Part shown: in pieces, positions 1 to 21,271 of the stretch
Layout of the letters: each line of letters starts with the position of its first letter
Numbering within the stretch: position 1 is the stretch's first letter
The notes under the pieces: generated by a model
What the model was told of the DNA's origin: nothing
Databases searched by the model: none
The model's input: only the letters and a program-made list of their open reading frames with translations
Translations under genes and position numbers: made by a program
Assembly: GCA_031551405.1 (NCBI GenBank)
Contig: JAVBNQ010000003.1
Coordinates: 186,001 to 208,654, forward strand
Length of the DNA: 22,654 nucleotides
Direction of reading: 5' to 3'
Source of the DNA: a bacterium
GTDB taxonomy: Bacteria; RUG730

Positions 1-1
1 A

Positions 2-1033: not shown

Positions 1034-2068
1034 CTTTAGCGAATCGCCTCGGTCTTCACCTATTTTTCGTCCTAAAGATTCAGCCATTTCGTATAAATTT
1101 TGCGTTATAGTTTTAGCGTCTTCGGTCAGACATTTTTTCCCGGGATAAATCTCGTAGAGTTTTTTGTAAGTGTGAGGGGTGTAGTTTGGCATGATCACGT
1201 TTGCTCCGAGTGTCAAAGCCTTGATCCTATAATCCTCGCCCATGCTTCCAAGAGCGCTTGTTGCCGGTATATGAGCATTTTTCGATGTTATCCTCGTAAG
1301 CGCCAAAACCTTAAAAACTAAATTTACATCAGCTTTTGACTCGCTAGACAGCAAAGTTTCCGGATGTGGTAAAAATGGACTTACGCTAAGCATATCGTAC
1401 TCGTTTTCGGCGAATTTCTGCAAATCAAACGCCAAATCTTCGAAAGTCTGGCCTTTCAAACCCACAATATTTCCGGATCCAACTTGAAATTTCAATTTAC
1501 GCAAATTATCCAAACATTCAATTCTATTTTCAAAACTCATAGACGGATGCAACCTTTCGTACAATTTTTTGTTAAAAGTTTCAATTTTTAAAAGATAGCG
1601 ATCAGCTCCAGCATTTTTCAAAATTTCATATTCTTCAAAAGTTTTTTCGCCGAGTGAAAGAGTAATCGCAAGCTCCGGGTATTTTTTTTTAACAGTTTTT
1701 ATAATCTCAGCAATCCAATAAATATCGATTTTTTGTTCGCCGGATTGCAAAACTATCGTCTTGATTTTGTCTTGAACTATCAAGTCAACGCTTTCAAAAA
1801 TTTCAGAAGATTTTAGAGTATAGCGCTCGAGCTTTGTGTTGTTTTTATTTAGGCCGCAGTAGGTGCAAGTTTTATCGCAACAATTGGAAATTTCTATGAG
1901 CCCGCGCAAATAAATTTTATTGCCGACATATTTTTGCCGAATTTCGTCAGCAAAATCATAAATTTCTTGTAGATATTTTGGCTCAGAAACTGCAAGCAAA
2001 AAAACTAAATCTTTTATATTTGGGATTTTTGATTGGAAGATTTGTTTTAATAAATACGAAATTTTCAT
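1016..2068 (-). CDS. hydE: Radical SAM protein, HydE-like ([FeFe]-hydrogenase maturase HydE / BioB-PylB subgroup)
   Basis: RGLIEISNCCDKTCTYCGL (CxxxCxxC), IVLQSGE, ITLSLGE, GADRYLLKIET, LHP, PFLPHP, IPATSAL, GANVIMPN, and C-terminal YEIYPGK, all typical of HydE. Confidence 0.75.
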   Translation of the reverse strand: MKISYLLKQIFQSKIPNIKDLVFLLAVSEPKYLQEIYDFADEIRQKYVGNKIYLRGLIEISNCCDKTCTYCGLNKNNTKLERYTLKSSEIFESVDLIVQDKIKTIVLQSGEQKIDIYWIAEIIKTVKKKYPELAITLSLGEKTFEEYEILKNAGADRYLLKIETFNKKLYERLHPSMSFENRIECLDNLRKLKFQVGSGNIVGLKGQTFEDLAFDLQKFAENEYDMLSVSPFLPHPETLLSSESKADVNLVFKVLALTRITSKNAHIPATSALGSMGEDYRIKALTLGANVIMPNYTPHTYKKLYEIYPGKKCLTEDAKTITQNLYEMAESLGRKIGEDRGDSLKSCLDN

Positions 2069-3750
2069 TTAGGCTTTTGGGAAGTTTTATAGTCGACGCC
2101 TATTACATAAGATTTGTCTTTTAAAGTAAGGCTTTTGAAATATAATGTTTTGTAAATTTTTAAATTAGAACCCGGTTCTACATGCGTATAAACCAAGCTT
2201 AATGTTTCATTTTTATTTTCTTCTGCAAGTTTCAAATATTTTTTTACTATAAAATCGCCGGATGCGTCCTTAAATTTAAGAATATTTAAATTTTCAAAAA
2301 ATGTATTTTTAGAATCAAAAAGCTGAACGCCGTTTCCTTCAGTGATAAAAAATCTTAGATTTTTGTAGAAAAATAGATTGTGTTCGCGAATTGTAGAAAT
2401 AGCAGAATTTATGTCTGTGCTTTCCGACAAAAAATTATACGCAATATCCAAAGTTTCATTAGCAAATTCCGGATGCATTTCGAGATTAACACCAACTACT
2501 CCCAAAATATATTCAATATTATTGTTTTTAAATCTCGTGATGTAAGCGGATTTCCAAGTAGGAAACAGTTTGTTTTGTGAGGAAGAATTTTTTATGTAAT
2601 GAACCCAGCCTTTGTTATTATTAAAATCTAGGGTTACAAGCATATTTTTAAACATTGGCTGTCCAAATAAGTCTTTCATATAATTAATATTTTTTTGTTC
2701 AAAACCATGAATTACTTTATCAATTACAAGAATTCCTGTTTTAACTTCAATCAAAAAAATATTATTTACATTTTTTGTTAATTCTTTGAAACTATCGATT
2801 GTATTTTCAGCAAGAAAATCTGTATATTCGTCAGATAAATATTTTATTTCGTAAATTTGAGAACTTTTATTTTTGGCATTAATAGATATAGCGTCCGGAA
2901 AAATTACTGAATAAGCAACTATTACTTTCTTGTCGTTTAATACCGCAGTTTGGTAATAAATACTTTTTAAATATGCGTTTTTTTCATCATTTTTCTCTTC
3001 ATAATAGTTCATCCAGCCAGAATTTTTTGACAGCGATAAATTAATAAGATTTTTTATATAAGGAGCTCCTGTAAAATCATTTAAATTTAAAATATTTATC
3101 TGTTGAGGAGAAAATTTTGCCGAATTAAATAAAACGTTTCCCATATTATCAAGAATAAACAGAAAATTTTCAGCACAAAAAAAATCATGAGTTCTGTTCC
3201 TTATCATAGAAAAAGCCAAATTACCTTTTTCTTTTATCAAATGAACAATTTTCTCGACTTCATCGACTACAAACTCAGGCTCCAGTTTTAAATTAAATCT
3301 ACCGCTAGCTACAATATATTCTTTTCCTGCCGGAGTCTTTACTTTTTTGGAATAAATTATTTTATAATTTTGGTTTAGATTTTTTAAATTTTTACACGAA
3401 GTATAAACCCAATGTGAGTTGGAATAATCATAATAAGTGTTTTCAAAAACAAACATTTTTTTAAATTTTTCAGTTTCAGAAGCATCATTTGAAATGTTGC
3501 AATCATCAAGAGGGGGATTAACTATACAAACACCATTTAAATCATAAATATTTATAAAACACTTTTTATTTAACCATTTCGATTTTATATCACTAAAATC
3601 AGAGAAAACAGTTTCTCCTTTTTCTTCAATCAATTTTGAAGCTTCATCTACAAGGGTTATAATATCAATAGCTTCTTGATTTTTATATGAATACAAATTT
3701 GGAAAGGAAAATAAAAATAATAAAAAAACTATAAAACTTATGTTTCTCAT
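2065..3750 (-). CDS. Exported protein with four tandem Cache_2-like domains and no transmitter domain
   Basis: N-terminal signal peptide-like MRNISFIVFLLFLFSFPNLYS. Repeated Cache-like motifs: LVDEASKLIEEKGE, FILDNMG, NILNLNDFTGAPYIK, NINYMKDLFGQPMFK, NILKFKDASGDFIVK, GWMNY/GWVHY, WKSAY. Its stop overlaps the hydE start (ATGA). Confidence 0.75.
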   Translation of the reverse strand: MRNISFIVFLLFLFSFPNLYSYKNQEAIDIITLVDEASKLIEEKGETVFSDFSDIKSKWLNKKCFINIYDLNGVCIVNPPLDDCNISNDASETEKFKKMFVFENTYYDYSNSHWVYTSCKNLKNLNQNYKIIYSKKVKTPAGKEYIVASGRFNLKLEPEFVVDEVEKIVHLIKEKGNLAFSMIRNRTHDFFCAENFLFILDNMGNVLFNSAKFSPQQINILNLNDFTGAPYIKNLINLSLSKNSGWMNYYEEKNDEKNAYLKSIYYQTAVLNDKKVIVAYSVIFPDAISINAKNKSSQIYEIKYLSDEYTDFLAENTIDSFKELTKNVNNIFLIEVKTGILVIDKVIHGFEQKNINYMKDLFGQPMFKNMLVTLDFNNNKGWVHYIKNSSSQNKLFPTWKSAYITRFKNNNIEYILGVVGVNLEMHPEFANETLDIAYNFLSESTDINSAISTIREHNLFFYKNLRFFITEGNGVQLFDSKNTFFENLNILKFKDASGDFIVKKYLKLAEENKNETLSLVYTHVEPGSNLKIYKTLYFKSLTLKDKSYVIGVDYKTSQKPK

Positions 3751-3789
3751 AATTTTTTTTATTAAATCTCCTTAATAATTTATTTTATA

Positions 3790-3818
3790 ATAATATGATT
3801 ACGACTCATAAAAAGCAA
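3790..3818 (-). promoter_or_regulatory. Candidate sigma70 promoter for the Cache-hydE unit
   Basis: Minus strand TTGCTT-17 bp-TATTAT, followed by AAGGAG (3768-3773) upstream of the ATG at 3750. AT-rich context, so a chance match is possible. Confidence 0.4.
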
Positions 3819-4007
3819 GCTTTTTTTCTAAATATTTTTTAGAATCAAAAATTAGCCATTTTTAAAACAGTTTTCATAAAAATACACTTTTTAAAATTTT
3901 TTTAACGTAAATAAGCTTAAATAGAATGAAAAACAAATAACAACTAACAACTCTAAAACAAAATGAAAATTTTCTAAACAATACAAAACACAAAACTTAA
4001 AATAATA

Positions 4008-4035
4008 ACGTCATATAATATATATTATGTTAACT
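4008..4035 (+). other. dif: dif-type XerC/XerD site-specific recombination site
   Basis: ACGTCATATAA-TATATA-TTATGTTAACT has the 11-6-11 architecture. Compare B. subtilis dif ACTTCCTAGAA-TATATA-TTATGTAAACT and E. coli dif GGTGCGCATAA-TGTATA-TTATGTTAAAT. It lies in a 499-bp AT-rich intergenic region. Confidence 0.8.
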
Positions 4036-4112
4036 TTTATAATAATTTTTTAATTACAAATTAAATAATACAAACACAGAAAAACATTTTAAATAAAGGA
4101 TAATTTAAATTT

Positions 4113-4123
4113 ATTTAACATAA
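4113..4123 (-). other. Isolated XerD-binding arm, inverted relative to the dif site
   Basis: Plus strand ATTTAACATAA is TTATGTTAAAT on the minus strand, identical to the E. coli XerD arm. No proper XerC arm at 6-bp spacing. Confidence 0.45.
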
Positions 4124-4196
4124 GTTCTTAGATAAAGTTTTAAGATTAGAATTTTTTAGGCTAAATTTTAATGTAAAAAAAATAAATCAAAAAAAT

Positions 4197-4225
4197 TTGT
4201 AATTTGAAAATTTAATTACTAAAAT
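4197..4225 (+). promoter_or_regulatory. Candidate sigma70 promoter for dusB
   Basis: TTGTAA-17 bp-TAAAAT, then GAGGA RBS at 4241-4245 and ATG at 4250. Confidence 0.45.
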
Positions 4226-4249
4226 GCTGCTTTAAATTTTGAGGAAATA

Positions 4250-5203
4250 ATGATAAAAAAAATAAAAATCAAAAATCTTGAATTTCAAAATAATTTGTTT
4301 TTAGCTCCACTAGCCGGGATTAGCGTCAAACCTTTTCGCGTCAATGCCAAAAAATTTGGGGCAGGTCTCGTTTTTAGTGAAATGATTTCAAGTTATGGAC
4401 TCGTCTACAACAACGAAAAAACATTTAGAATGCTTGATGTATTCGACGAAAAAGAAAAACCTGTTTGTGTGCAAATTTTTGGAAATGATGCGAAAATTTT
4501 AGCGGATGCTGCCGTGATTTTAGAGGAAAAAGGCGTTGAACTGATAGATATAAACATGGGGTGCCCAGCAACAAAAGTCGTAAATTCCGGTTCCGGATCT
4601 GCGATATTAAAAGACCTAAAAAAGGTAGAAAACATTGCAAAATCTGTTCGCGCCAAGGTCAAAATACCCCTCACTGCCAAAATACGAGCTGGCTGGGATT
4701 TGGAAAATGTAAATGCTGTTGAGGTTTCAAAAATTTTAGAAAATGAAGGATTTGATTTGATTACAGTTCATGGACGCACAAAAACGCAAAAATTTAATGA
4801 TTTTGATTGGCGGACAATACAAATGATCAAAAACAAAATAAAGATCCCTATAATTGGAAATGGCAACATATTTTCACCTAATGACGCAAAAATGATGTTT
4901 GAAGAAACGAATTGTGATGGATTTATGATTGGAAGAGCGAGTCTCTCAAATCCTTGGATTTTCAGACAAATCCTTGAGCTTGAACAAAAAGGAAAGTTTG
5001 AGGAAATTTCGCCAAAAGAAAGATTGGATTATATCAGAAGTTTTGCGGAAGATTTTGTTAATTACACAGGTGAACAATATGGGATTTTTGAGGTGAGAAA
5101 ATTTTTGATTTGGCTCGCGAAAGGATTACAAAACGCAAAATATTTAAAAGAAATAATCTGCAAAATGGAATCTATAGAAGAATTAAACCTGGCTCTCAAG
5201 TAA
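4250..5203 (+). CDS. dusB: tRNA-dihydrouridine synthase, DusB/NifR3 family
   Basis: LAPLAG, SEMIS, VQIFG, IDINMGCP, GSGSAIL, KIRAGW, VHGRT, MIGRA. Confidence 0.93.
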   Translation: MIKKIKIKNLEFQNNLFLAPLAGISVKPFRVNAKKFGAGLVFSEMISSYGLVYNNEKTFRMLDVFDEKEKPVCVQIFGNDAKILADAAVILEEKGVELIDINMGCPATKVVNSGSGSAILKDLKKVENIAKSVRAKVKIPLTAKIRAGWDLENVNAVEVSKILENEGFDLITVHGRTKTQKFNDFDWRTIQMIKNKIKIPIIGNGNIFSPNDAKMMFEETNCDGFMIGRASLSNPWIFRQILELEQKGKFEEISPKERLDYIRSFAEDFVNYTGEQYGIFEVRKFLIWLAKGLQNAKYLKEIICKMESIEELNLALK

Positions 5204-6064
5204 TTTTTTATCTACAATCACGCTTACAAAATTCAAAGAATTAATTTTTTCATATGGCTCAACATTCACGCTTTCAATATTCGCATTTTTATCAAAATTA
5301 ATCGATTTAATCTGCCCGATATAAATTCCATACGGAAAAATCCCACCGAGCCCGGAAGTGATAATGATATCTCCAGTTCTGAAATCATTCTTAAAATACG
5401 TCTGAATCGGACTCATTTTGAGAAGTGTAGAATTATCTCCTGCAATAATGCCGTACAAGTTTCTTGCCGGAGCAAAAGCAATGATGTTTGACGATACATT
5501 TGTAACAAGTAAAACTTTTGAATAATGCTTGTAAGTTTCTATAATCTGCCCGACTAAAATCTGAGATCCGTTTTCATGGGTAATTACAACATTTTTCTTT
5601 TTTATTCCGTCTTTTTCGCCCTTATTGATAATAATTACAGAAAACCAATCGTCAATAGTTCGACCAATTACTCGACATTCAATTTGATTATTACCATTTT
5701 TTACGTTAAGGTTTACAATTTTTTTTAATTCAATATTTTCTCGCTCCAAAACAGAAAGTTTACTTTTTAAAATTTTATAGTTTTGGACTTGTTTCTCAAG
5801 AGCAAAATTGTTTTGATAAGCATTTAAAATTGAGTGGATATTTTCGATTTTGTACTTATTGGAATTTAATAACGCTGACAATCTTTCTTGAAATGGAAAA
5901 AATATAAAGTTTATACCATTTTTCAGCCAAAAAATAGGTTTTGTTCCATCCACAAACATTAAAATAACACTAAAAAATAGCATAAAAAAATAAAGCTTAT
6001 AGTTTGTTTGGAATATTTTTTTTGGCAAAAAAGATTTTTTTAAAATTTTACTGTTTTTTAACAT
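5183..6064 (-). CDS. mreC: Rod shape-determining protein MreC
   Basis: N-terminal TM segment, coiled coil (LERENIELKK), IIINKGEKDGI, GDIIITSGLGGIFPYGIYIG. Directly downstream of mreB. Exact start uncertain. Confidence 0.93.
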   Translation of the reverse strand: MLKNSKILKKSFLPKKIFQTNYKLYFFMLFFSVILMFVDGTKPIFWLKNGINFIFFPFQERLSALLNSNKYKIENIHSILNAYQNNFALEKQVQNYKILKSKLSVLERENIELKKIVNLNVKNGNNQIECRVIGRTIDDWFSVIIINKGEKDGIKKKNVVITHENGSQILVGQIIETYKHYSKVLLVTNVSSNIIAFAPARNLYGIIAGDNSTLLKMSPIQTYFKNDFRTGDIIITSGLGGIFPYGIYIGQIKSINFDKNANIESVNVEPYEKINSLNFVSVIVDKKLLESQV

Positions 6065-6158
6065 GAAAATTTCCCAAGACTTTTTTCGCGAATTTTAAAA
6101 TTGATAAAATAATTTGATTTTTTAAGATGTGAAAATGTAGATGTTCGAAAGGATTTTA

Positions 6159-7199
6159 TTACGTATATTGCAGTTGAACGAATCTGCGATTTTTTTCGAT
6201 TTCTTCTAAATATCTTCCGGCTCCCAGCACAACGCAGTCTAACGGATTTTCTGCAATAATGACCGGAAGACCTGTTTCTTTTTTTATGAGCTCGTCTAGC
6301 CCTCGCAATAATGCTCCGCCGCCAGATACGACAATTCCTTTATCGACCAAATCAGCTGCAAGTTCTGCAGGCGTTTGTTCAAGTGTAGATTTTATCGAAT
6401 CAACAACGAGACTAATCGGTTCACTTAGAGCTTCTCGTATTTCGTCTGATGTAATCTCGATAGTTTTCGGCAAACCCGAAATTAAATCTCGACCCTTCAC
6501 TTCCATCGATAAAGTTTCTTTGATTGGATAAACAGAACCTATGCTTACTTTTATTAATTCTGCAGTTCTCTCGCCGACTAGCAAACTATGTTTTTTTCTA
6601 AAATAAAGGGAAATTGAATCGTCAAAATGGTCACCGGCAATTCGAAGCGAATGCGACAAAACCATACCACCCAAAGAAATCACCGCTATTTCCGTCGTCC
6701 CTCCGCCGATATCCACAATCATGCTTCCTGACGGTTCATGAATTTTTATATTAGCGCCAATAGCAGCAGCCATTGGTTCGTCTATGAGATAAACTTCTCT
6801 AGCGCCAGCTTGCTCGGCTGATTCTTTAACGGCACGTCTTTCGACCTCTGTAATTCCAGACGGAACTCCGATTACAATTCTAGGACTCAATATCGTTTTT
6901 TTATTATTAACTTTGCGAATAAAATATCGTATCATTTCCTCGGTAATTTCAAAATCTGCAATTACTCCATTCTTTAATGGTCTTACAGCAACAATATTCT
7001 TTGGTGTTCTGCCCACCATTCTTTTCGCTTCTTGCCCAACTGCCAAAACTTCTTTTGAGTTTTGTTCGATAGCTACGACAGACGGTTCTTGAAGAATAAT
7101 TCCTTTTCCTTTCAGATAAACCAAAGTATTAGAAGTTCCCAAATCCATCCCGAGATCAAATGAAAAAAAATTTAAAAGTTTAGAAGACAATATTTTCAC
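6159..7199 (-). CDS. mreB: Rod shape-determining protein MreB
   Basis: [45 protein letters not shown] start. Confidence 0.97.
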
Positions 7200-7220: not shown

Positions 7221-7574
7221 TTAGGAAATCAGCTTTATTAAACACATTGGAGCATTGTCTGAACGTCTATTTTCTAATTTCACAAGCTCAACAAAACCAC
7301 CAACTCTATTATCATATCTACCTATAATTTCATTAAAAAGCTTCAAATACGCATCTTTTTGATGGATATCTTGTCTGATTCTTTTACGAGCAGTCAAATC
7401 ATTCTTTTTAGCTCTTGAAATCAAAGAATCTATGAAAGCTTTTAGATTTTTTGCCTTTGCTTCAGTTGTTTTTATAGACTCATATTTTATTAAACTACAA
7501 GCCATATTTCTAAGAAGCGCAATTCTATGTCCAGTATTTCTATTTAATTTTTTTCCGCCTTTAATTCCGCCCAT
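7221..7574 (-). CDS. rplQ: 50S ribosomal protein L17
   Basis: KKLNRNTGHRIALLRNM, IKTTEAKAK, RVGGF, RRSDNAPM. Start placed at ATG 7574, behind a GGAGG RBS, rather than at TTG 7589. Confidence 0.95.
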   Translation of the reverse strand: MGGIKGGKKLNRNTGHRIALLRNMACSLIKYESIKTTEAKAKNLKAFIDSLISRAKKNDLTARKRIRQDIHQKDAYLKLFNEIIGRYDNRVGGFVELVKLENRRSDNAPMCLIKLIS

Positions 7575-7596
7575 CCTTTCTTCCTCCAAAATTTCC

Positions 7597-8592
7597 TTAA
7601 ATATTTTTTATATCCATTCCTAGATTAAGACCCAATTCTTGTAATTTCTCACGAATTTCATCTAACGATTTTCTACCAAAATTTTTATACGAAAGAAGTT
7701 CATTTTCTTTTTTTGAAACCAACTCTTTAATCTTATAAATTTTTGCACTTTTTAAACAATTTGCGCTTCTAACAGATAATTCAATTACCTCTACAGATTG
7801 TTCAAACAAATCTTTAATTTTCTCAGCAGAATGTTCTTGTTCAACCTCTTTCTTCTCGACTTTTTCGCTTGAATAACCGACTAAAAGATCTTTGTCTTCC
7901 TCAAAATTTATGAAAATATTCATTGAATCTTTCAAAATTTTTGCAGAGTATGCCAAAGCATCTTCTGGTTTTATTGATCCATCAGTCCAAATTTCTATGA
8001 TCAGTCTATCATAATCGATCAAATGCCCGACTCGAGCACTTTCTACCTCGTAATTTACTTTTATTACCGGCGAAAAAATCGCGTCTATCGCTATTGCATT
8101 AACAGGCAACTCCGATTTATCATTTTCCTCAATCGACAAATAACCGCGTCCTCTATTCACATATATTTCCATTTCAAGCTCTGCGTTTATATCCAAATTT
8201 GCAATCACGAGTTCCTTATTTATGACTTCAATATTTGAGTTTGAAATGATATCTCCGGCAACAACAGCTCCTCGACCTTTTTTATGAAGCTTTAAAATTT
8301 GCAAGTCTTTTGAGTCTGATTTAAAACGAACTTGCTTTAAATTCAAAATTATCTGCATTACATCTTCTGCAACACCCGGCAAAACTGAATATTCATGAGG
8401 TGCATTATTGATTTTTACTGCAGTAATTGCATTACCCTCAAGAGAAGACAATAAAAGACGCCTTAAAGAATTTCCAATTGTGTGCCCATATCCTGGTTCA
8501 AAAGGCTCTGCAAAAAACTTACCATAAGAATTTGTCAAAGAATTAACATCAGCTTGCAAATTATTTGGAATTACTAAATTTTTTAATTTCAT
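7597..8592 (-). CDS. rpoA: RNA polymerase alpha subunit
   Basis: EPFEPGYGHTIGNSLRRLLLSS, DAIFSPV, LSVRSANCL, KNFGRKSL. Confidence 0.98.
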   Translation of the reverse strand: MKLKNLVIPNNLQADVNSLTNSYGKFFAEPFEPGYGHTIGNSLRRLLLSSLEGNAITAVKINNAPHEYSVLPGVAEDVMQIILNLKQVRFKSDSKDLQILKLHKKGRGAVVAGDIISNSNIEVINKELVIANLDINAELEMEIYVNRGRGYLSIEENDKSELPVNAIAIDAIFSPVIKVNYEVESARVGHLIDYDRLIIEIWTDGSIKPEDALAYSAKILKDSMNIFINFEEDKDLLVGYSSEKVEKKEVEQEHSAEKIKDLFEQSVEVIELSVRSANCLKSAKIYKIKELVSKKENELLSYKNFGRKSLDEIREKLQELGLNLGMDIKNI

Positions 8593-8655
8593 ATTTCAAA
8601 ACCGCCCTTATGAATTTTTTTAAATACAAATACTCTCACAGAATTATTTCAAAAA

Positions 8656-9291
8656 TTATTTCGAGTATAACTCTACTATGAGCTGCTCTTTTACAGGAGT
8701 TGTAATATCAGCTCTATTCGGTAACCTTACAACTTTTGCCTCAAAATTTTCTAAATTAATAGTAATCCATGACGGAACTGTTGCAGTATTTACACTTTTA
8801 CTTTCTTTTAATTCTTTAAAAATCAACATTTCTTGACTATTGTCTTTAATTTTTACAACATCATTTTCTTTAAGTAAAAAAGAAGGCTTGTCTACTCTTT
8901 TGCCATTTACTAAAACATGTCCGTGCACAACCAACTGTCTAGCTGAATTTTTAGATTTTAAAAAACCTGTTTTAACTAGAAAATTATCAAGTCTTCTTTC
9001 AATAAAGACAAGCAAATTTTCACCAGTCTGACCATCTTTCTTTTCAGCTAACTCAAAATATTTTTTAAATTGCTTTTCCAAAATACAATAATATCTCTTT
9101 GCTTTTTGTTTTTCTCTCAATTGTAACCCATATTCCGAAACCCTCATTGACCTAGCTGTTCCATGCTGACCCGGAGCAAAAGCCCGTTTTTCCATAGCAC
9201 ATTTATATGAATTACATCTATCAGCTTTTAAAAATAACTTCAAACCTTCTCGTCTACATAATCTACAAACTGAACCTATATATCTAGCCAA
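8656..9291 (-). CDS. rpsD: 30S ribosomal protein S4 (Cys/Zn type)
   Basis: MARYIGSVCRLCRREG, YGLQLREKQK, ERRLDN, IVELYSK. TTG start with GGAGG RBS. Confidence 0.98.
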   Translation of the reverse strand: MARYIGSVCRLCRREGLKLFLKADRCNSYKCAMEKRAFAPGQHGTARSMRVSEYGLQLREKQKAKRYYCILEKQFKKYFELAEKKDGQTGENLLVFIERRLDNFLVKTGFLKSKNSARQLVVHGHVLVNGKRVDKPSFLLKENDVVKIKDNSQEMLIFKELKESKSVNTATVPSWITINLENFEAKVVRLPNRADITTPVKEQLIVELYSK

Positions 9292-9363
9292 CCTAGTAGC
9301 CTCCTTAAAAGAATTTTACAATATAATTTTTTAATATATTTTTTTATTATTTTGGCGGGAAAA

Positions 9364-9771
9364 TTACACTCGTCTTTGTTTCGGAGGTCTGCAACCATTA
9401 TGAGGAAGCGGCGTGATATCCTTTAAAGACAAAATATTTAATCCAACAGCCTGAAGAGCTCTAATACTGGTTTCTCGACCAGATCCAGGCCCTTTTACAT
9501 TCACTTCAACATTTCTAATCCCTAAATCAAATGCTTTTTTTGCAGCTTGTTCAGAAGCTTGTTGTGCCGCGAAAGGAGTACCTTTTCTGGTTCCTTTAAA
9601 TCCCAAAGCTCCAGATGATGCCCAACATAACGGTTCTCCAAATTCATTTGTGATAGTGATGAGCGTATTGTTAAAGGAAGATTTTATATAAACTCTTCCA
9701 TTTACAGTAATCTTTGCTTTTATTTGTTTTTTAGTTTTTTTTACTGATGAAGTATTTTTGCTTACAGCCAC
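9364..9771 (-). CDS. rpsK: 30S ribosomal protein S11
   Basis: [33 protein letters not shown]. Confidence 0.98.
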
Positions 9772-9799
9772 TTATTTATAACCCTCCTAGAGTTTAATT

Positions 9800-10147
9800 T
9801 TAAAATTTTTTCCCACGACGAGTTCTAGAGTTTGTCTTTGTTCTTTGTCCTCTGCAAGGCAAATTATTTCTGTGTCTCAAACCTCGATAAGATTTTATAT
9901 CTTTAAGTCGTCGAATATTTTGGGAAACTTCTCTTCTCAAATCTCCTTCGACTTTATAATTTTTTGTTAAAATATTTGTGATTCGGCCTACTTCTTGTTC
10001 TGTCAAATCTTTAACTCGCGTGTCAATGTTCACTTCCGCTTCTTCCAAAATCTTTTGCGACGTCTTCAGACCAACACCATAAACATATGTCAACCCAATT
10101 TCAACTCTTTTATTTTTTGGTAAATCTATCCCAGCTATTCTCGCCAT
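9800..10147 (-). CDS. rpsM: 30S ribosomal protein S13
   Basis: [28 protein letters not shown]. Confidence 0.98.
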
Positions 10148-10164
10148 ATTATAAGTCCTCCGAA

Positions 10165-10278
10165 CTAACCTTGTTTTTGTTTATGTTTTGGATTTTCACA
10201 AATCACGCGCAAAACATTTTTTCTTTTTACTATTTTGCATTTAGCACAAATTTTCTTGACTGATGCTCTCACTTTCAT
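10165..10278 (-). CDS. rpmJ: 50S ribosomal protein L36 (not in the ORF track)
   Basis: Manual translation [45 protein letters not shown], canonical position between infA and rpsM. Confidence 0.97.
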
Positions 10279-10296
10279 AAAGATATTTCCTCCGGG

Positions 10297-10515
10297 TTAT
10301 TTCCCTCTATAAGTAATTCGTCCTCTCGATAAATCGTAAGGAGACAACTCAATTTTGACAGTATCGCCTGGTAAAATTTTAATAAAATGCATCCGCATCT
10401 TTCCAGAAATATGAGCCAAAACTTTATGACCATTTTCTAATTCAACTTTGAAAGTTGCGTTAGGCAAAGCTTCAATAATTGTGCCTTCAACCTCTATTTT
10501 TTCAGTATTTACCAT
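10297..10515 (-). CDS. infA: Translation initiation factor IF-1
   Basis: [36 protein letters not shown]. Confidence 0.98.
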
Positions 10516-10530
10516 AATTTTTTTTGTCCT

Positions 10531-11283
10531 CTAAAAGCTTGTCAAAATTTCTGGACCATTTTTAGTAACCAAAACAGTATGTTCGAAGTGCGCTGAGTTT
10601 GAGCCATCTAACGTCACAACTGTCCAGTCATCACCCAAGATTCCTGTTCGCCAATCTCCAACATTAATCATTGGTTCTATCGCAAAAACCATTCCCTCTT
10701 GAATCTTTAATCCGGTTTTTGGAACCCCATAATTCAAAATTTCAGGTTTTTCGTGCAAGCTCGTTCCAATTCCATGCCCGACATATTCTCGTACAACAGA
10801 AAAATTTGTTTTTTTTGCAATCGAATCAACTGCGTTTCCAATGTCTCCGAGATAATTATCAACAACGCAATGTTTTATTCCCTCATCCAACGCAAGCTTT
10901 GTAGTCTCAATCAGCTTTTTGTCAGACTCAGAAATGTTTTCAATCGGAACTGTAACAGCCATATCCGAAAAATATCCGTCATAACAAATTCCAATATCTA
11001 TCGACAAAATATCGCCATTTTTCAAAAAACGAGATTTTGATGGAATACCATGAACAATTTCATTATTAATTGAAGCGCAAATACTGGCTGGAAATCCGTT
11101 GTAATTCAAAAAAGCTGGTTTTGCGTCTGAATTTAAAATTAATTCGTAAGCAATATCATCTAGTTTTTTCGTAGTAATATTAACTTTTACTTCTTTGAGC
11201 AAGTTGCGCATAATTTGGGAAAGAATCTTCCCAGATTTTCGCATTTTATTTTGCTCATCGAAACTTTTTATTAAACTTGGCAT
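10531..11283 (-). CDS. map: Methionine aminopeptidase type I
   Basis: CASINNEIVHGIP, DIG, D-MAVT, GHGIG, EPM, SAHFEHT. Confidence 0.97.
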   Translation of the reverse strand: MPSLIKSFDEQNKMRKSGKILSQIMRNLLKEVKVNITTKKLDDIAYELILNSDAKPAFLNYNGFPASICASINNEIVHGIPSKSRFLKNGDILSIDIGICYDGYFSDMAVTVPIENISESDKKLIETTKLALDEGIKHCVVDNYLGDIGNAVDSIAKKTNFSVVREYVGHGIGTSLHEKPEILNYGVPKTGLKIQEGMVFAIEPMINVGDWRTGILGDDWTVVTLDGSNSAHFEHTVLVTKNGPEILTSF

Positions 11284-11927
11284 TGTTCGCCAACCAAAAT
11301 TTTTTTTATAAAACTAAAAATAGCTTCAATTGAATTTGAAGCATTGATCACTTCTAGTAAATTTCTCTCTCTGTAAAAATCAACAAGAGGTGCGGTTTCG
11401 GATTGATAAATTTTAAGACGATTCAAAATCACATCGTGATTATCATCCATTCGCTGCTCTAACTCACCAAAACAAAAATCGCATCTATTTTCTTTATCTG
11501 TTGGATTAAAATAAATATTGTACTCTCTTTTGCAACTCTTACAAACTCTGCGACCGGAAAGCCTTTTTAAAATATCCTCTTCTCTCAAATTTAAGTAAAT
11601 AACTTTTTTCAGTACAGCGCCGGTTGTTTCTAAATATTTTTCAAACAAGTTAGCTTGATTAATATTCCTCGGAAATCCATCTAAAACATATTTTTTTGAT
11701 TCTTTTATTTTTTCTAAAACCAAATCAAAAACTAAAGCGTCATTGAGGAAAAAACCTTTTGAAATAATATCGTTTATTTTTTGTCCTAATTCGCTTTTTT
11801 CATTAATAATTTGCCTCAACAACTCACCGGATGAAATATGAGTATAACCTAATTCATCTACAAGTAATTTTGCTTGAGTTCCCTTCCCACTGCCTGGCAC
11901 ACCAAATAAAATTATGAATTCTTTCAT
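11271..11927 (-). CDS. adk: Adenylate kinase (Zn-binding LID)
   Basis: GVPGSGKGTQ P-loop, LDGFPR, RRVCKSC...RCDFC, QRMDD. Confidence 0.97.
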   Translation of the reverse strand: MKEFIILFGVPGSGKGTQAKLLVDELGYTHISSGELLRQIINEKSELGQKINDIISKGFFLNDALVFDLVLEKIKESKKYVLDGFPRNINQANLFEKYLETTGAVLKKVIYLNLREEDILKRLSGRRVCKSCKREYNIYFNPTDKENRCDFCFGELEQRMDDNHDVILNRLKIYQSETAPLVDFYRERNLLEVINASNSIEAIFSFIKKILVGEQCQV

Positions 11928-13246
11928 TTTGAATTAAAATATCGTCCGCGGATCCTGCCGCTATCCATGAAGCCTTCATAGCGCCTAGTAATCAAGTGCG
12001 ATTCTAATTGTCCCATTGTATCTAGTCCGACTCCAACCGCAATTAACAAAGCTGTGCCGCCAAAATGAAATGGGATATTGAAAAATGCTCGCAAAATATC
12101 AGGCATAATAGCAAGAAGCGCAATAAAAATAGCACCAAAAAAAGTTATTCTTATCAAAACGTATTCTATATATTTTGCAGTTGGTTCGCCAGGTCTTACT
12201 CCTGCAATAAAACCACCGGATTTCTTCATATTTTCCGCTAAATCGTTAGGATTGAAAGTGATGGAAGTATAGAAATAACAGAAAAAAATGATAAGGGCAG
12301 CATAAATAATGTGATATAGTATCCCTGCGTGTGACCAAAGAGCCAGTATTTTTTTTGACATAGGTTGGTCCGGGAAAAACTGCGCTATTGTGAGCGGAAA
12401 AGAAATAATCGAAACTGCAAAAATAACCGCTATTACTCCTGATTGATCGACTTTAATTGGCAAAAATGAAGTTTGCCCGCCAACCATTTCATTCCCAGAA
12501 TAACGTTTCGGATATTGAATAGGGATTCTTCTCTGGGCTTGCTCAACTCTCACAACTAAGGCCGTAGCAATCAAAATTATCGCAGTGATAATTAGGACGG
12601 TAAAAATAGAAATTCCCTCGCTCTGCAATAATAAGAATATATTTTTTATGGCTCCTGGAAGTCTATCGATAATTCCAGCAAAAATAATCATTGAAACACC
12701 ATTTCCAATGCCTTTTTCAGTAATTCGTTCTCCGAGCCACATTATAAAAACTGTTCCTGTAGTCAAAGTAATAACAGAAATTAATTGAAATTTCAGTCCA
12801 GATTCTAAAACAACCGGACTTCCGTTAGGAGCCTTCATTGCCATTATCATAAAAGTGAGTCCAAAAGATTGAATTAATCCCAAAATCAAAGTCCCATATC
12901 TTGAAATTTGGATTAATTTTTTTCTGCCTTCTTCCCCTTCTTTCGATAGTTTTTCAAAATAAGGAATTATCGTTTGCAACAAAGACACGATAATTGAAGT
13001 GTTAATATAAGGCATAACACCCATAGAAAAAATAGAAAATTTATTGAGGGCCCCACCGGAAAACATATCCAAGAAACCAAATAAAGTATTATTTTGATTT
13101 GCAAAAAAAGCTCTCAGTGCAGTACCATCAATTCCAGGAGTTGGGATAGCTGTTCCAATTCTGTAAACAATAATTATAGCTAAAGTAAAAAAAATCTTTT
13201 TTCTCAGTTCTTTAATTTTAAAAACTTCAGACAAATTTTTTATCAT
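11924..13246 (-). CDS. secY: Preprotein translocase SecY
   Basis: FSGGAL, GVMPYI, WLGERITEKGIGNG, GVRPGEPT, FGGTALLI, multiple TM segments. Confidence 0.98.
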   Translation of the reverse strand: MIKNLSEVFKIKELRKKIFFTLAIIIVYRIGTAIPTPGIDGTALRAFFANQNNTLFGFLDMFSGGALNKFSIFSMGVMPYINTSIIVSLLQTIIPYFEKLSKEGEEGRKKLIQISRYGTLILGLIQSFGLTFMIMAMKAPNGSPVVLESGLKFQLISVITLTTGTVFIMWLGERITEKGIGNGVSMIIFAGIIDRLPGAIKNIFLLLQSEGISIFTVLIITAIILIATALVVRVEQAQRRIPIQYPKRYSGNEMVGGQTSFLPIKVDQSGVIAVIFAVSIISFPLTIAQFFPDQPMSKKILALWSHAGILYHIIYAALIIFFCYFYTSITFNPNDLAENMKKSGGFIAGVRPGEPTAKYIEYVLIRITFFGAIFIALLAIMPDILRAFFNIPFHFGGTALLIAVGVGLDTMGQLESHLITRRYEGFMDSGRIRGRYFNSK

Positions 13247-13263
13247 ACGACCTCTTTAAGAAG

Positions 13264-13710
13264 TTAAGCTATTATTGTGATTACACCTTTTGCTTTTTCG
13301 ATTTTTTCTTTTCCAGCTTTTGAAACCGCATGTGCTTCGATTTTTTTTGCTTTTTCTAATTCGCCATTCGCCAAAATCTTAATCTTTTGATTTTTAGTAA
13401 TAATTTTCTTTGAAATATAATCATCCAAAGTAATTGTTTCTTTACTGCCAAAAATTTTATTTATTTGAGAAAGATTCAAAGAAACAACATCTTCTTTAAA
13501 ATTAAAATTAGAAAAACCACGTTTCGGGAGACGTCTCATCAAAGGCATTTGTCCACCTTCAAATCCTACTCTAACCCCTCCTCCTGCTCGTGAATTTTGA
13601 CCATTTGATCCTCTTCCACAAGTCTTTCCGTTTCCACAACCATAGCCTCGCCCAACTCTTTTTCTATTTTTTTTTGATCCGATCGCCGGTTTTAATTCTG
13701 ACAATTTCAT
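13264..13710 (-). CDS. rplO: 50S ribosomal protein L15
   Basis: [30 protein letters not shown]. Confidence 0.98.
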
Positions 13711-13725
13711 TCGCTTTCTCCCAAG

Positions 13726-14253
13726 TTAATTAATTTTTCTTAAATCATTCACTACTTGTTTAGTCTGAAGCTCACTCAAAGCTTTCAAAGTCGTATAAAC
13801 AACATTGAATGGATTGTTACTTCTGAGCGATTTACTTAAAATATCTTTATATCCTGCTGCCTCTAAAACTGCTCTTACAGCGCCACCGGCAATAATCCCG
13901 GTACCAGGCGCAGCTGGTTTCAATAAAACTCTTCCTGCTCCAAACTCGCCAACTATATCGTGCGGAATTGTTGTTCCTTTAATAGGCACAGTAATCATAG
14001 TTTTTTTTGCTCGTCTTACTGCTTTTTTTATAGCTTCCTGAACTTCTTTCGCTTTTCCAACTCCACATCCAACCTTCCCTGCTTCATCTCCTACTACAAC
14101 CAAAGCGCTAAATCCAAACCTTTTTCCACCTTTTACAACCTTGGTAACTCGATTTACAGTCACAAGATTTTCTTTATAATTTTTCTCACTAGTTTCTGTA
14201 ATTACCTGAGCTGCATTTTGTTCAGTGTTTTCTAAATTTGCTGCCTCTTTCAC
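13726..14253 (-). CDS. rpsE: 30S ribosomal protein S5
   Basis: [35 protein letters not shown]. Confidence 0.98.
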
Positions 14254-14279
14254 TCAAAATACTCCTTAGTTATAATTTT

Positions 14280-14654
14280 TTAAAAATCTATACCTTTGCT
14301 ACGAACAGCATCGGAAAAAACTTTAACTTTCCCATGATATAAATAACCGTTTCTATCAAAAACAATTTTCTTTACACCCAATTCTTGCAATTTCTCTCCA
14401 ACAAACTCGCCAAAAAGTTTACAAGATTCGATATTTTTTTTGTTTTTTTGTTTATCGAAAAGTTCATTATTAAGAGTAGAAAAAGCTTTTAATGTATGAC
14501 TTGTAGCATCATTTATGATTTGTGCATATAAATAATTCAAAGATTTTACAAAAACAAGTCTAGGCCTTTCGCTATTTCCTTCAATTTTCTTTCTAATTCT
14601 AAATTTTCTTACTTGCCGACGAACTTCTTTATTTCTTGTTAATTTCTTATCCAT
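14280..14654 (-). CDS. rplR: 50S ribosomal protein L18
   Basis: RPRL, YAQIIND, FDRNGYLYHGKV. Confidence 0.97.
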   Translation of the reverse strand: MDKKLTRNKEVRRQVRKFRIRKKIEGNSERPRLVFVKSLNYLYAQIINDATSHTLKAFSTLNNELFDKQKNKKNIESCKLFGEFVGEKLQELGVKKIVFDRNGYLYHGKVKVFSDAVRSKGIDF

Positions 14655-14669
14655 AAAAAATATCCTCTT

Positions 14670-15218
14670 CTATTTTTTGCTTGAAGCAGCTGATTTTCCT
14701 GCTTTTCTAATAATCTTTTCACCAAGATACATGATTCCTGTTCCTTTGTAAGGCTCAGGCGGACGAATCGCTCTAATCGTAGCAGCTATCTCTCCTACTT
14801 TCAATTTATCAAAACCTTCGACAGTCAACTGATTTGTTTTAGCATCTATAGAAATGTTTATTCCATCAATTATGTCTATTTCTACTGGGTGAGAATAACC
14901 TACATTTAAGACAAGCTTTTTTCCGGCAACATTAGCTTTAAAACCTATGCCTTTTATTTGCAAAACTTTCTGGAAGGGCTTTTGAAATCCATTTACCATA
15001 TTTGCAATTAAATTTCTCACCAAACCATGCAAAGATTTCACTCTATTTTCTTCACTATTTCTAGTTAAAGTTATTTTATTATTTTCATATTTTAATTTTA
15101 TTTCACTTGGAATTTCTGTCTCAAGTGAATGTTTTCCATTCGAGACTTTTATAGAATCTGAAATTTCAACTTTTAGATTACTCGGAACAATAATTTCTTT
15201 TTTACCTATTCTACTCAT
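14670..15218 (-). CDS. rplF: 50S ribosomal protein L6
   Basis: MSRIGK, GYSHP, RPPEPYKG, RKAGK. Confidence 0.98.
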   Translation of the reverse strand: MSRIGKKEIIVPSNLKVEISDSIKVSNGKHSLETEIPSEIKLKYENNKITLTRNSEENRVKSLHGLVRNLIANMVNGFQKPFQKVLQIKGIGFKANVAGKKLVLNVGYSHPVEIDIIDGINISIDAKTNQLTVEGFDKLKVGEIAATIRAIRPPEPYKGTGIMYLGEKIIRKAGKSAASSKK

Positions 15219-15235
15219 AAATTTTTACCAATCCT

Positions 15236-15634
15236 TTACCAAATATATCCTATTATTTCGCCACCGATATTTTGTTTTTTCGCTTCTCGTCCAGTCATTA
15301 AACCTTTTGAAGTAGATAAAATAGTAACACCTAGCCCGGATCTGATCTTAGGAATTCTAGCTACATCTTTATAAATCCTTAAACCCGGAGTACTTACTCT
15401 TTTTATTCCTGTGATCACTTTTTCTTTATTTTCGCCATATTTCAAAGCAATTCTCAATACTTTTTTGTTTTTTTCTTCAACTTTATTGTAATTTTTTATA
15501 AAACCTTCTTTTTTAAATATCTCAAGGATTTGCTCCTTAAATTTTGAAGCCGGAACATCTAAACTTTCGAATAATTTTGCATTTGCATTGCGAATACTAG
15601 TAAACATATTTGCGATTGGATCTGTAACTGACAT
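15236..15634 (-). CDS. rpsH: 30S ribosomal protein S8
   Basis: TDPIANM, RVSTPGLRIY, STSKG, GGE. Confidence 0.98.
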   Translation of the reverse strand: MSVTDPIANMFTSIRNANAKLFESLDVPASKFKEQILEIFKKEGFIKNYNKVEEKNKKVLRIALKYGENKEKVITGIKRVSTPGLRIYKDVARIPKIRSGLGVTILSTSKGLMTGREAKKQNIGGEIIGYIW

Positions 15635-15644
15635 TTTGCCTCCA

Positions 15645-15830
15645 TTACCAACTTGCTTTTTTTACACCAGGGATTTCAGCGCTATAAGCTCTTTCTCTGA
15701 AACAAATTCTGCATAGCCCGAAATCTCCCATATACCCTCGAGGTCTTCCACAAATTCTACATCTGTTATAATTACGAGTAGAAAATTTTTGTTCTCGTTT
15801 CTGCTTTACTATTAAACTTTTTTTCGCCAC
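15645..15830 (-). CDS. rpsN: 30S ribosomal protein S14 type Z
   Basis: 61 aa, [25 protein letters not shown]. Confidence 0.98.
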
Positions 15831-15847
15831 TTAGAATTTCCCTCCGT

Positions 15848-16393
15848 TTATTTTTTCTTTTTAAATGGCATTCCCATATTTTTTAACATTTCTCGGTTCT
15901 GCTCTATATTTTTCTGTGAACAAACAAAAGTAATATTCATTCCTCTTGCTTTGTCTGATTTATCTAGATCGATTTCAGGAAAAATATATTGCTCTTTTAT
16001 CCCCAAATTATAATTTCCATTTTGATCAAAAGCATTTGGATTCAAACCTTGAAAATCCCTAATTCTAGGAATAGAAATATTTATGAGCCTATCTAAAAAT
16101 TCATACATTTTCTTCCCTCGTAAGGTCACCATACAACCTATAGCCATGCCTTCTCGTAATTTAAAATTAGAAATTGATGTTTTTGCCTTAGTCACCAAAA
16201 CTTTCTGCCCAGAAATAGCAGTTAGTTCGCTAGTAGCAATTTCCAAAACCTTTGGATTATCTTTTGCCTCACTCAATCCTATATTTAAAACTATTTTGGT
16301 GAGTTTTGGGACTTCCATCACGTTTTTATAATTAAATTGCTTCATCAAATTAGATACGACTTTCTCTTTATACTGCGTAAGTAAACGACTCAT
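15848..16393 (-). CDS. rplE: 50S ribosomal protein L5
   Basis: VPKLTKIVLN, FKLREG, PRIRDFQG, IFPEI. Confidence 0.98.
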   Translation of the reverse strand: MSRLLTQYKEKVVSNLMKQFNYKNVMEVPKLTKIVLNIGLSEAKDNPKVLEIATSELTAISGQKVLVTKAKTSISNFKLREGMAIGCMVTLRGKKMYEFLDRLINISIPRIRDFQGLNPNAFDQNGNYNLGIKEQYIFPEIDLDKSDKARGMNITFVCSQKNIEQNREMLKNMGMPFKKKK

Positions 16394-16411
16394 CTTTTGA
16401 TACCTTCCATA

Positions 16412-16720
16412 CTAAATTATAATTTCACCACATTTCTTGCAGACTCGAACTTTTTTTGCATCACTTAAAACATCATTTTTGATTCGAGTAGGTTTACTGC
16501 ATTTCGAACAAACTAACATTAATTTTGAAATATTGATAGGAAATTCCTTTTCAATTATTCCACCCTCGTTTTGTTGAGATTTTTTTGTTGTTTTTTTCAT
16601 TAAATTAACTTTTGAAACAATTACTTTATTTTCAGAAGGAAATGATTTTAGAACTTCTCCAATTTTCCCCTTATCCTTTCCGCTCAAAACAATTACTTTA
16701 TCATTTTTTTTAATATGCAT
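16412..16720 (-). CDS. rplX: 50S ribosomal protein L24
   Basis: IKKNDKVIVLSGKDKGK, GGIIEKE, C-terminal CxxC...CxxC. Confidence 0.97.
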   Translation of the reverse strand: MHIKKNDKVIVLSGKDKGKIGEVLKSFPSENKVIVSKVNLMKKTTKKSQQNEGGIIEKEFPINISKLMLVCSKCSKPTRIKNDVLSDAKKVRVCKKCGEIII

Positions 16721-16734
16721 AATAAAAACCCTCT

Positions 16735-17103
16735 TTATAAAACTTCAGGAGCTAAAGATATAATTTTCATGTAATTTTTGTCACGCAATTCACGAGGGAT
16801 TGGCCCAAAAATTCTAGTTCCACGCGGTTCATTATTGTTATTTATTACCACTGCTCCATTTTCATCAAATCTTACGTATGATCCATCATTTCTTTTATAA
16901 GTTCTTTTCATTCGAACAACAACAGCCTTTACAACATCTCCCTTTTTAACAGCGGCACCAGGCGTTGCATCTTTAACAGCAGCAACTATGATATCGCCAA
17001 TAGTGGCATATCTTTTCTTAGAACCACCCAAAACCTTTATACACATTATTTTTTTTGCACCTGAATTATCTGCGACATTTAACATTGTTTGTTGTTGTAT
17101 CAT
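16735..17103 (-). CDS. rplN: 50S ribosomal protein L14
   Basis: [22 protein letters not shown]. Confidence 0.98.
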
Positions 17104-17192
17104 TTTTATTTCTCCATTTACTAGATCATCTCTTAAACAAAAAACTTACTGTCTAATCTCGAGGAATACCTGAAATTGAAACTTAATTTTTT

Positions 17193-17222
17193 ATTATAAC
17201 AAATTTTTATATAAAATAACAA
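17193..17222 (-). promoter_or_regulatory. Candidate internal spc-operon promoter upstream of rplN
   Basis: In the only large gap (136 bp) of the cluster: minus strand TTGTTA-18 bp-TATAAT with an extended -10 (TGtTATAAT). Same position as E. coli Pspc. Confidence 0.6.
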
Positions 17223-17239
17223 GGAAAATATACTGACAA

Positions 17240-17497
17240 TCAATCAGAAATTTTTTCTATTACCTCAAGAATTTCCCAAGACTTTCTTTTACTCATTGGT
17301 CTTTTGTAAATAATTGAAACTATATCTCCAATCTTTGTCTCGTTTTTTTCGTCATGTGCCATAAATTTTGTTGTTTTAGTAACGATTTTTTCATAAAGCG
17401 GATGTTTTACTTTTCGTCTTATTTCAACAACTCTAGTTTTATCCATTTTGTCGCTTACGACTTTGCCTTGTAATTTTTTTTTCTTTTTTGTTTCCAT
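17240..17497 (-). CDS. rpsQ: 30S ribosomal protein S17
   Basis: GKVVSDKMDKT, HPLY, AHDEKN, RPMSKRK. Confidence 0.97.
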   Translation of the reverse strand: METKKKKKLQGKVVSDKMDKTRVVEIRRKVKHPLYEKIVTKTTKFMAHDEKNETKIGDIVSIIYKRPMSKRKSWEILEVIEKISD

Positions 17498-17510
17498 TAA
17501 ATTTCTCCAG

Positions 17511-17696
17511 CTATTTCAGCTCTTTTATTATAGTATTAATTCTAGCAATTTCTTTTTTTATATTGGATAATTCCATTGTATTTTTTAACATAGTTGTTTT
17601 ATGTTTAAAAGCCAGCTTGAATTTTTTCTCTTGTAACTCTTTTAATTTAGCAGTTAATTCGACTTTTGACATTTGTCTCATTTCTGTAATCTTCAT
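17511..17696 (-). CDS. rpmC: 50S ribosomal protein L29
   Basis: 61 aa, IKKEIARINT, canonical position. Confidence 0.95.
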   Translation of the reverse strand: MKITEMRQMSKVELTAKLKELQEKKFKLAFKHKTTMLKNTMELSNIKKEIARINTIIKELK

Positions 17697-17699
17697 ATT

Positions 17700-18113
17700 T
17701 TATACCGCCTGTTTTTTTATAAACCTGGTTTTGATTGGCAATTTGTGCGATGCTAAAGCCATTGCTTCTTTTGCTGTTTCTTCAGTAAGTCCATCAATTT
17801 CAAATAAAATCCTACCAGGCTTTACAACAGAAACCCAAAATTCTGGAGCTCCTTTCCCTTTTCCCATTCTAGTTTCCGCAGGTTTTTTGGTGACAGATCT
17901 GTCAGGAAAAACTCTAATCCAAAGTTTTCCGCCTTTTTTTGCATATCTGGTCAAGGCGATTCTAGAAGCTTCTATTTGCTGGCTCTTTACCCAACCCGGC
18001 TCTAACGCCTGCAAACCAAATGTTCCAAACGATATATAGCTTCCGCCTTTTACCTTTCCTTTCATTCTGCCTCGTTGCAATTTTCTATATTTTACTCTTT
18101 TAGGCATTAACAT
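17700..18113 (-). CDS. rplP: 50S ribosomal protein L16
   Basis: [31 protein letters not shown]. Confidence 0.98.
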
Positions 18114-18131
18114 TATTTTTTCTCTCCTACG

Positions 18132-18842: not shown

Positions 18843-18859
18843 GTACAGAATCCTCCCTT

Positions 18860-19183: not shown

Positions 19184-19186
19184 TTT

Positions 19187-19474: not shown

Positions 19475-19485
19475 ATTTTTACCTC

Positions 19486-20313: not shown

Positions 20314-20330
20314 TTTTGCTAAACCCTCTC

Positions 20331-20624: not shown

Positions 20625-20626
20625 TT

Positions 20627-21265: not shown

Positions 21266-21271
21266 TTTTCT

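Follow-up and report, generated by a model that had tools for sequence, protein, structure and literature searches.

Does the dif-type Xer site that lies beside the main ribosomal protein superoperon of this bacterium mark the replication terminus and, if it does, are the core translation genes replicated last? The site falls in a stretch of 22,654 nucleotides, called the window below, which is G000:C11:186001-208654, G000 being the genome at hand and C11 one of its contigs. Feature coordinates are window positions unless a contig is named. The genome consists of 14 contigs totalling 1.21 Mb and is rated 100% complete, with 0.04 contamination. A first-pass annotation of the DNA had proposed that core translation genes, rpoA, secY and mreBC are kept at the terminus, co-directional with the fork, and had named a non-terminus Xer site used for integration as the alternative. 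From the evidence set out below, we consider it highly likely that the 28-mer is chromosomal dif in the terminus region and that the adjacent core translation genes are replicated last, on the leading strand.

The 28-mer, ACGTCATATAATATATATTATGTTAACT, reads on the + strand at 4008..4035 (G000:C11:190008-190035). It is a dif-type Xer recombination site with an 11-nt arm, a 6-nt spacer and a second 11-nt arm, ACGTCATATAA-TATATA-TTATGTTAACT. By hand count, the left arm ACGTCATATAA (4008..4018, + strand) matches the left arm of B. subtilis dif at 8/11 positions and that of E. coli dif at 5/11. The central region (4019..4024, + strand) is TATATA, the very spacer of B. subtilis dif, as the annotation had stated. 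The right arm TTATGTTAACT (4025..4035, + strand) had been reported as 10/11 identical to the E. coli and B. subtilis arms, and a recount gave the same figure. By analogy with those two systems, the left arm would be the XerC side and the right arm the XerD side. The inner dyad of the site is ATAA-N6-TTAT, and a 6-bp centre is likewise seen in the three 28-bp chromosomal dif sequences given in PMC3025954 (Methods).

As delimited from the ORF table and the sequence, the site sits in an AT-rich intergenic region of 499 bp (3751..4249) between divergently transcribed genes, with a G+C content of about 20%. An Rfam scan of the window returned no family. A lone 11-mer resembling the right arm (1 mismatch) was seen on the - strand at 4113-4123, inverted, 105 bp to the right of the start of dif and 77 bp past its end. 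As a functional element this half-site was set aside; it is probably a chance occurrence and is absent near dif in 6/6 other genomes examined.

Reference sequences for B. subtilis and E. coli dif were taken from the Methods of PMC3025954. Over its whole length, the site is identical to B. subtilis dif at 24/28 positions and to E. coli dif at 20/28. For both references it is the top-scoring 28-mer genome-wide, with runners-up at 20/28 (B. subtilis) and 19/28 (E. coli). The 28-mer is unique in the 1,207,757-base, 14-contig genome. A better dif match elsewhere, which the annotation had named as grounds for dropping its proposal, was not found in the genome, the next closest site having 8 mismatches. 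In five genomes simulated with a first-order Markov model, the 28-mer closest to B. subtilis dif matched it at 19-22 of 28 positions. When the dif pattern was searched for in 41 genomes, 7 matched (G000 included), compared to none of the 41 for the reversed-pattern control.

The phylum set comprised 7 genomes, G000 included. Allowing 3 mismatches, the 28-mer was found in exactly one copy in each of 6 of these, and the one miss is a 76%-complete genome. Conservation in related genomes had been made a test of the proposal; five of the six other phylum genomes bear it out, each with one copy of the 28-mer. A further 34 genomes of other phyla gave one match. The right arm does not vary among the 6 phylum genomes that have the site. 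The left arm among relatives follows A[CT]GTC[ACT][TC]ATAA, and the spacers read TATATA, GATATA or TAGATA. The flanks of dif are unalignable among the relatives, leaving the 28-mer as the sole conserved stretch in 6 genomes that span a class. In the available text of Kono et al. 2011 (PMC3025954), dif is predicted in 16 phyla, including 1/1 Elusimicrobia genomes by way of the Firmicutes and Chlamydiae profiles; the same text makes no mention of ribosomal operons next to dif.

The surroundings of dif resemble those in G000 in some relatives. Genes converge on dif, in the G000-like orientation, in G005 (4+/0- to the left, 0+/9- to the right) and G006 (10+/0- and 1+/2-), and in both of these genomes total skew turns from + to - across the site. 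The right side of dif in G004 has 0+/18-. Around dif, G001 has mixed skew and gene orientation, and so has G003 to the left of the site. In G004, where dif lies at a contig end (G004:C495), a directly duplicated stretch of about 55 nt abuts the left arm, within 138 nt to the left; it is either an artefact of assembly or genuine.

The presence of xerC, xerD and ftsK had been proposed as a check, and the genome contains xerD and ftsK together with a xerC-like gene. There are exactly two Phage_integrase-family genes and no other tyrosine recombinases. The product of the gene on C5 (293 aa) passes the TIGR02225 XerD cut-off of 329.6 with 357.1 bits. For the product of the gene on C12 (296 aa), the best-scoring model is TIGR02224 XerC, where its 332.1 bits fall just under the cut-off of 335.15 (3 bits short). 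Both recombinases align full-length to E. coli XerD 1A0P and are identical in the Arg, Lys, His-x-x-Arg, His and Tyr motif columns, which we take to be the catalytic residues. There is a single FtsK, 750 aa long, in which the 4TM, alpha and motor domains are recognized. Its gamma domain gives a weak, sub-threshold Pfam match (E = 0.04, 14.1 bits vs a cut-off of 30.6), and in a PDB sequence search for this domain the matches cover the motor domain only.

A polarity switch of skewed octamers at the site had also been named as something to look for. Counts for the top 15 octamers go from 1384:799 on the left of dif to 49:230 on its right; no KOPS-like polar octamer emerged among the most skewed 8-mers, which were trained on 549 kb of other contigs. 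These 8-mers are A/T-rich, coding-like words, found 64-85% on the leading strand. Since these octamers flip also within the gene block at C11:120-140 kb, what they follow is gene orientation, and they contribute little to the case.

The left neighbour of dif is a gene for a Cache-domain sensor protein (2065..3750, - strand; Pfam dCache_2 and sCache_2). Its right neighbour is dus, encoding tRNA dihydrouridine synthase (4250..5203, + strand; Pfam Dus, E = 4e-79), the only confirmed + strand gene right of dif in the window. Beyond dus, mreC and mreB (5183..7199, - strand; Pfam MreC and MreB_Mbl) point toward dif, as does the S10-spc-alpha superoperon, which extends from rpsJ to rplQ and includes secY, adk, map, infA and rpoA (7221..22285, - strand; Pfam and ORFs). 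The 3' part of tuf (22315..22653, - strand; TIGR00485 positions 284-394) is cut by the contig end. The annotation had described the whole tuf-to-mreC block as transcribed toward the site, and in the ORF table all long ORFs in 5183-22653 are indeed on the - strand. The products identified on this strand are MreC, MreB, L17, RpoA, S4, S11, S13, IF-1, Map, Adk, SecY, L15, L3, S10 and the EF-Tu C-terminus. The end of mreC is 1.15 kb from dif and the end of rplQ 3.2 kb, in agreement with the distance of about 3 kb from the end of the superoperon that had been given. Among the neighbours of dif scanned with Pfam, there were no integrase or phage genes. To the left, 3 kb from dif, is the end of a long + strand ORF (C11:183974-187030, window 2-1033) whose product has a PD-(D/E)XK nuclease domain at its C-terminus and may be AddB/RecB-like.

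When C11 is divided into 10-kb bins, raw GC skew is for the most part above zero between 10 and 190 kb and falls below zero in the final bin. Because raw skew could mirror gene orientation, G-C skew was measured at third codon positions (GC3). Across seven contig sets, coding-strand GC3 skew ranged from +0.09 to +0.19 in genes on the leading strand and from -0.08 to -0.145 in those on the lagging strand. This signal is near-symmetric between the two groups, showing that the skew tracks replication and not transcription. Top-strand GC3 skew (10-kb bins) keeps a single sign on all contigs save C6 and C11. C6 reads - - + + +, with an origin-type switch at about 20 kb, at dnaA (C6:20627-21109). 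On C11 the sign is + between 10 and 120 kb, values are about 0 between 120 and 190 kb, and the bins over 190-208 kb fall to -0.21 and -0.30, which is a terminus-type switch. A skew switch had been expected near the site, and the sole +/- switch inside any contig is at or next to dif while the sole -/+ switch is at dnaA; these counts are for contig interiors, and extra paired switches could hide at contig ends.

The GC3 switch on C11 is a broad zone (120-190 kb) and is not sharp at dif. Cumulative total GC skew has its maximum at C11:187189, 2.8 kb left of dif (scaffold C3+/C11+/C14-). Cumulative GC3 skew has its maximum at C11:165106, 25 kb left of dif (about 2% of the genome), and then runs as a plateau to the site. 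The site is thus at the right edge of a broad terminus zone and, as GC3 skew is near zero over C11:120-190 kb, the forks may on average meet tens of kb to the left of dif. Predicted dif positions in general, according to the available text of PMC3025954, correlate with skew shift points and do not exactly coincide with them. GC3 skew stays near zero in the 70-kb zone directly left of dif (C11:120000-190000), even though the genes in the final 27 kb of this zone run along the + strand. In the relatives, GC3 skew is likewise weak or slightly negative over the 10 kb to the left of dif. The zone may reflect a right-hand fork that often passes dif, or it may be a rearrangement scar.

To the right of dif, the drop in GC3 skew is partly inflated by ribosomal-protein genes (-0.2 to -0.67). 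The values for mreB, mreC, secY, adk and map (-0.06 to -0.17) fit the polarity of the right-hand replichore, and the 20 - strand ORFs right of dif have a coding-strand GC3 skew of +0.26, a leading-strand signature.

The 5' parts of tuf are found at the right ends of C3 and C14, and the polarity of both contigs implies forks moving toward these tuf ends. Since both polarities lead into C11, the terminus is inside C11 whichever way the contigs are joined. At 98.6% identity, the final 360 nt of C11 (window 22295-22654) repeat its opening 360 nt (C11:1-360) in reverse complement. C11 (208.6 kb) is therefore bounded by two inverted tuf copies, alike over their 3' 360 nt and both reading into the contig. 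Recombination between inverted tuf copies would flip the whole terminus segment and shift dif by about 170 kb. Another feature near the left end of C11 is a 2,866-codon ORF on the - strand (C11:4164-12764), which is the lagging strand there.

Contig-end overlaps link C2-C8, C9-C12-C7 and C10-C12; a search for such overlaps found no links for C11, C14, C3 and C6. In a class-level relative (G006:C8), rpoB-rpoC-rpsL-rpsG-fusA-tuf-rpsJ-rplC are contiguous, and because of this order C14 most likely joins the right end of C11 via tuf. C14 carries fusA and a tuf 5' part, with rpoB at 17690-21346. It also carries the only 16S rRNA gene of the genome (C14:9273-10804), after which come genes for tRNA-Ile and tRNA-Ala; rpoB is found about 7 kb downstream of the 16S gene, on the same strand. 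With the join predicted from G006 synteny, and about 0.7 kb of tuf missing between the contigs, rpoB would begin about 30 kb away from dif and the 16S gene would lie about 39 kb away, and these genes would all point toward the site. This would place the str operon, rpoBC and the only 16S gene within about 39 kb of the site.

We compared the dif neighbourhood and the ribosomal cluster among relatives. Using tblastn (1e-3, 6 genomes, flanks of up to 10 kb per side), no homologues of 12 window proteins were found near the relatives' dif; in G001 and G004, where dif is at a contig end, one of the flanks compared was under 1.3 kb. The genes rpoA and dif are on different contigs in 5/5 relatives. 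Adjacency of dif and the ribosomal cluster was seen in 0/5 relatives, and so in G000 only among the six genomes examined. The rpoA-rplQ-mreB-mreC linkage is kept on the same strand in all five relatives across the phylum, and the association of these cell-shape genes with the alpha operon is thus a conserved one. Downstream of mreC the relatives have other genes, and no dif was found there over 3-16 kb, as far as the contigs reach. The mreB frame of G001 has just 207 codons, 130 of them aligned, and is possibly broken or misassembled. G001 and G003 have a common dif context, which is unlike that of G000.

As the neighbourhood is not shared with relatives, the adjacency of dif and the ribosomal cluster would be derived in this genus. 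Gene order between genera is too scrambled for the rearrangement that put mreC beside dif to be reconstructed, and an inversion model drawn from shared neighbours (orthologues of C2:153.6-157.0 kb) is speculation. Outside the phylum, 0/80 rpoA loci (+/-10 kb) held a 28-mer that matched the dif of G000, B. subtilis or E. coli at 22/28 or better; these loci (RpoA 47-53% identical) are a crude sample with many closely related Acidobacteriota, and their dif is perhaps too divergent to detect. Taken with the inferred join, we think it reasonably probable that this genus has its only rRNA operon, rpoBC, str/S10/spc/alpha, secY and mreBC gathered on the last ~40 kb (~3%) of one replichore, ending 1 kb from dif, possibly via a terminus-spanning rearrangement, and that this arrangement is absent in sister genera.

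How do other explanations fare against these data? The 28-mer could be a functionless chance match, an AT-rich palindrome in an AT-rich intergenic region. The low G+C content of the intergenic spacer (about 20%) suits this idea, as do the simulated genomes, which reach 22/28 against B. subtilis dif, and the narrow margin over the runner-up for E. coli dif (20 vs 19). However, the observed 24/28 is above the maximum of 22 in 5 simulations, and the invariant right arm, the single copy per genome and the status of the 28-mer as sole conserved stretch amid unalignable flanks all speak against chance, which we regard as extremely unlikely on account of the conservation and position of the 28-mer. 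Integrative elements that exploit Xer exist, and the site could instead be a real Xer target other than the terminus dif, namely an accessory or attachment site of an integrating element (IMEX) or a remnant of one. The lone inverted 11-mer at window 4113-4123 can be read in this way, but that extra half-site is missing from all six other genomes examined, and the genome has no second full site, 8 mismatches being the closest approach. The 28-mer is moreover single-copy, conserved across the phylum in differing contexts and located at the sole +/- skew switch, with no integrase or phage genes among its scanned neighbours. A plasmid-type (cer/psi-like) site is disfavoured by the central region, which is 6 bp and not longer, and by the lack of a second bounding site. 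With neither a second dif-like site nor a flanking element, the integration alternative raised by the first-pass annotation was given up; we consider it very improbable.

It could also be that dif is real and that late replication of the cluster is wrong, either because the dif-mreC junction is a misassembly or strain chimera, or because the right replichore is very short and the cluster is also near oriC. The genome is metagenome-assembled, in 14 contigs, and its neighbourhood is unlike that of 5/5 relatives. Only one public run contains the window stretch: X1, an invertebrate gut metagenome that is the probable source and thus the only run with the junction. A 33,340-nt Logan contig of run X1 covers window 1-12000 with 0 differences and an even depth of about 34-40; this contig is the product of a different assembler working on the same probable source sample, and is not independent data. 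Since it crosses the dif-mreC junction without a difference, it argues against an assembler-specific chimera. As for a short arm, the minimum possible right arm would be about 70 kb, if C14 abutted C6. Against either version are the one -/+ and one +/- switch seen in 1.2 Mb and the GC3 skew of mreB, mreC, secY, adk and map, which fits the right replichore. Overall, we judge this explanation unlikely.

Our preferred reading is that the 28-mer is a terminus dif and, very probably, the genuine and ordinary dif of a small uncultured gut bacterium. By analogy with characterized systems, we infer Xer binding, catalysis, arm assignment and FtsK dependence. The XerC-like protein would bind the left arm and XerD the right arm, with strand exchange across the 6-bp TATATA. 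Two sister dif sites would synapse at the septum, where recombination would resolve chromosome dimers. Translocation by FtsK at the septum would probably bring the dif sites together and activate XerD.

With one -/+ and one +/- switch in 1.2 Mb, the forks are expected to meet in C11, and if there is no fork trap the two arms would be similar in replication time. Forks would thus converge on C11 of a chromosome of about 1.2 Mb with roughly equal replichores. S10-spc-alpha and, given the predicted join, str, rpoBC and the single rRNA operon would lie on the leading strand of the right replichore, about 1-39 kb from dif. Placed beside dif, core translation genes would be copied last and have the lowest replication-associated dosage, yet remain co-directional with the fork. 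The original suggestion of a terminal, co-directional position for these genes, rpoA, secY and mreBC is therefore supported by skew, by the uniqueness and conservation of dif, and by gene orientation.

An ori-proximal bias of ribosomal-protein genes is described for fast growers in the available text of PMC4395360 and PMC2797632. The latter, in the part available, describes the bias as strong among fast-growing bacteria and 'much less so' among slow-growing ones, and reports a positive correlation between minimum generation time and how far the genes for rRNA, RNA polymerase and ribosomal proteins lie from the origin (PMC2797632). The placement of S10-spc-alpha in G000 (with the predicted join also str, rpoBC and the sole rrn) runs counter to the bias of fast growers, which we find moderately interesting. 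As the origin constraint is weaker in slow growers, the arrangement mainly predicts slow growth without multifork replication. Our literature search found no paper describing a ribosomal cluster beside dif in this lineage.

For a lineage that is uncultured and poorly sampled, the site offers a firm marker of the terminus, of use in scaffolding, peak-to-trough growth estimates and replichore analysis. If the arrangement is true of a closed genome, it would be a natural extreme opposite to the ori-proximal rule, and the bacterium would offer a natural test of whether, in gut symbionts that grow slowly, a translation apparatus whose genes are copied late is tolerated or even favoured.

The E. coli system of dif, XerC-XerD and FtsK has a like architecture. 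The right arm of its dif agrees with the one described here at 10/11 positions, and the two recombinases align full-length to E. coli XerD 1A0P. It differs in that the left arm agrees at just 5/11 positions and the whole site at 20/28, no KOPS-like motif was found here, and FtsK gamma is only weakly detectable.

The closer match is B. subtilis dif with CodV-RipX (XerC/XerD). It has the same 28-bp 11-6-11 layout and the same TATATA spacer, and its arms agree at 10/11 (right) and 8/11 (left) positions. As in B. subtilis, the site in G000 is a single copy at the skew switch, in a genome with two paralogous tyrosine recombinases and an FtsK/SpoIIIE-family translocase. The phylum and the flanks differ. 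The S10-spc-alpha cluster of B. subtilis is near oriC, whereas in G000 it abuts dif.

For gene placement, the relevant comparison is Vibrio cholerae, in which S10-spc-alpha was moved toward ter (as described in the available text of PMC4395360, PMC5347342 and PMC10127744). In the part of PMC4395360 at hand, relocation lowered dosage, expression and growth under fast growth and had no significant effect under slow growth. Both cases have a major ribosomal-protein locus far from oriC. The position in G000 is native, in an uncultured bacterium with one 16S gene, and G000 can be seen as a natural counterpart of the Vibrio relocation experiments.
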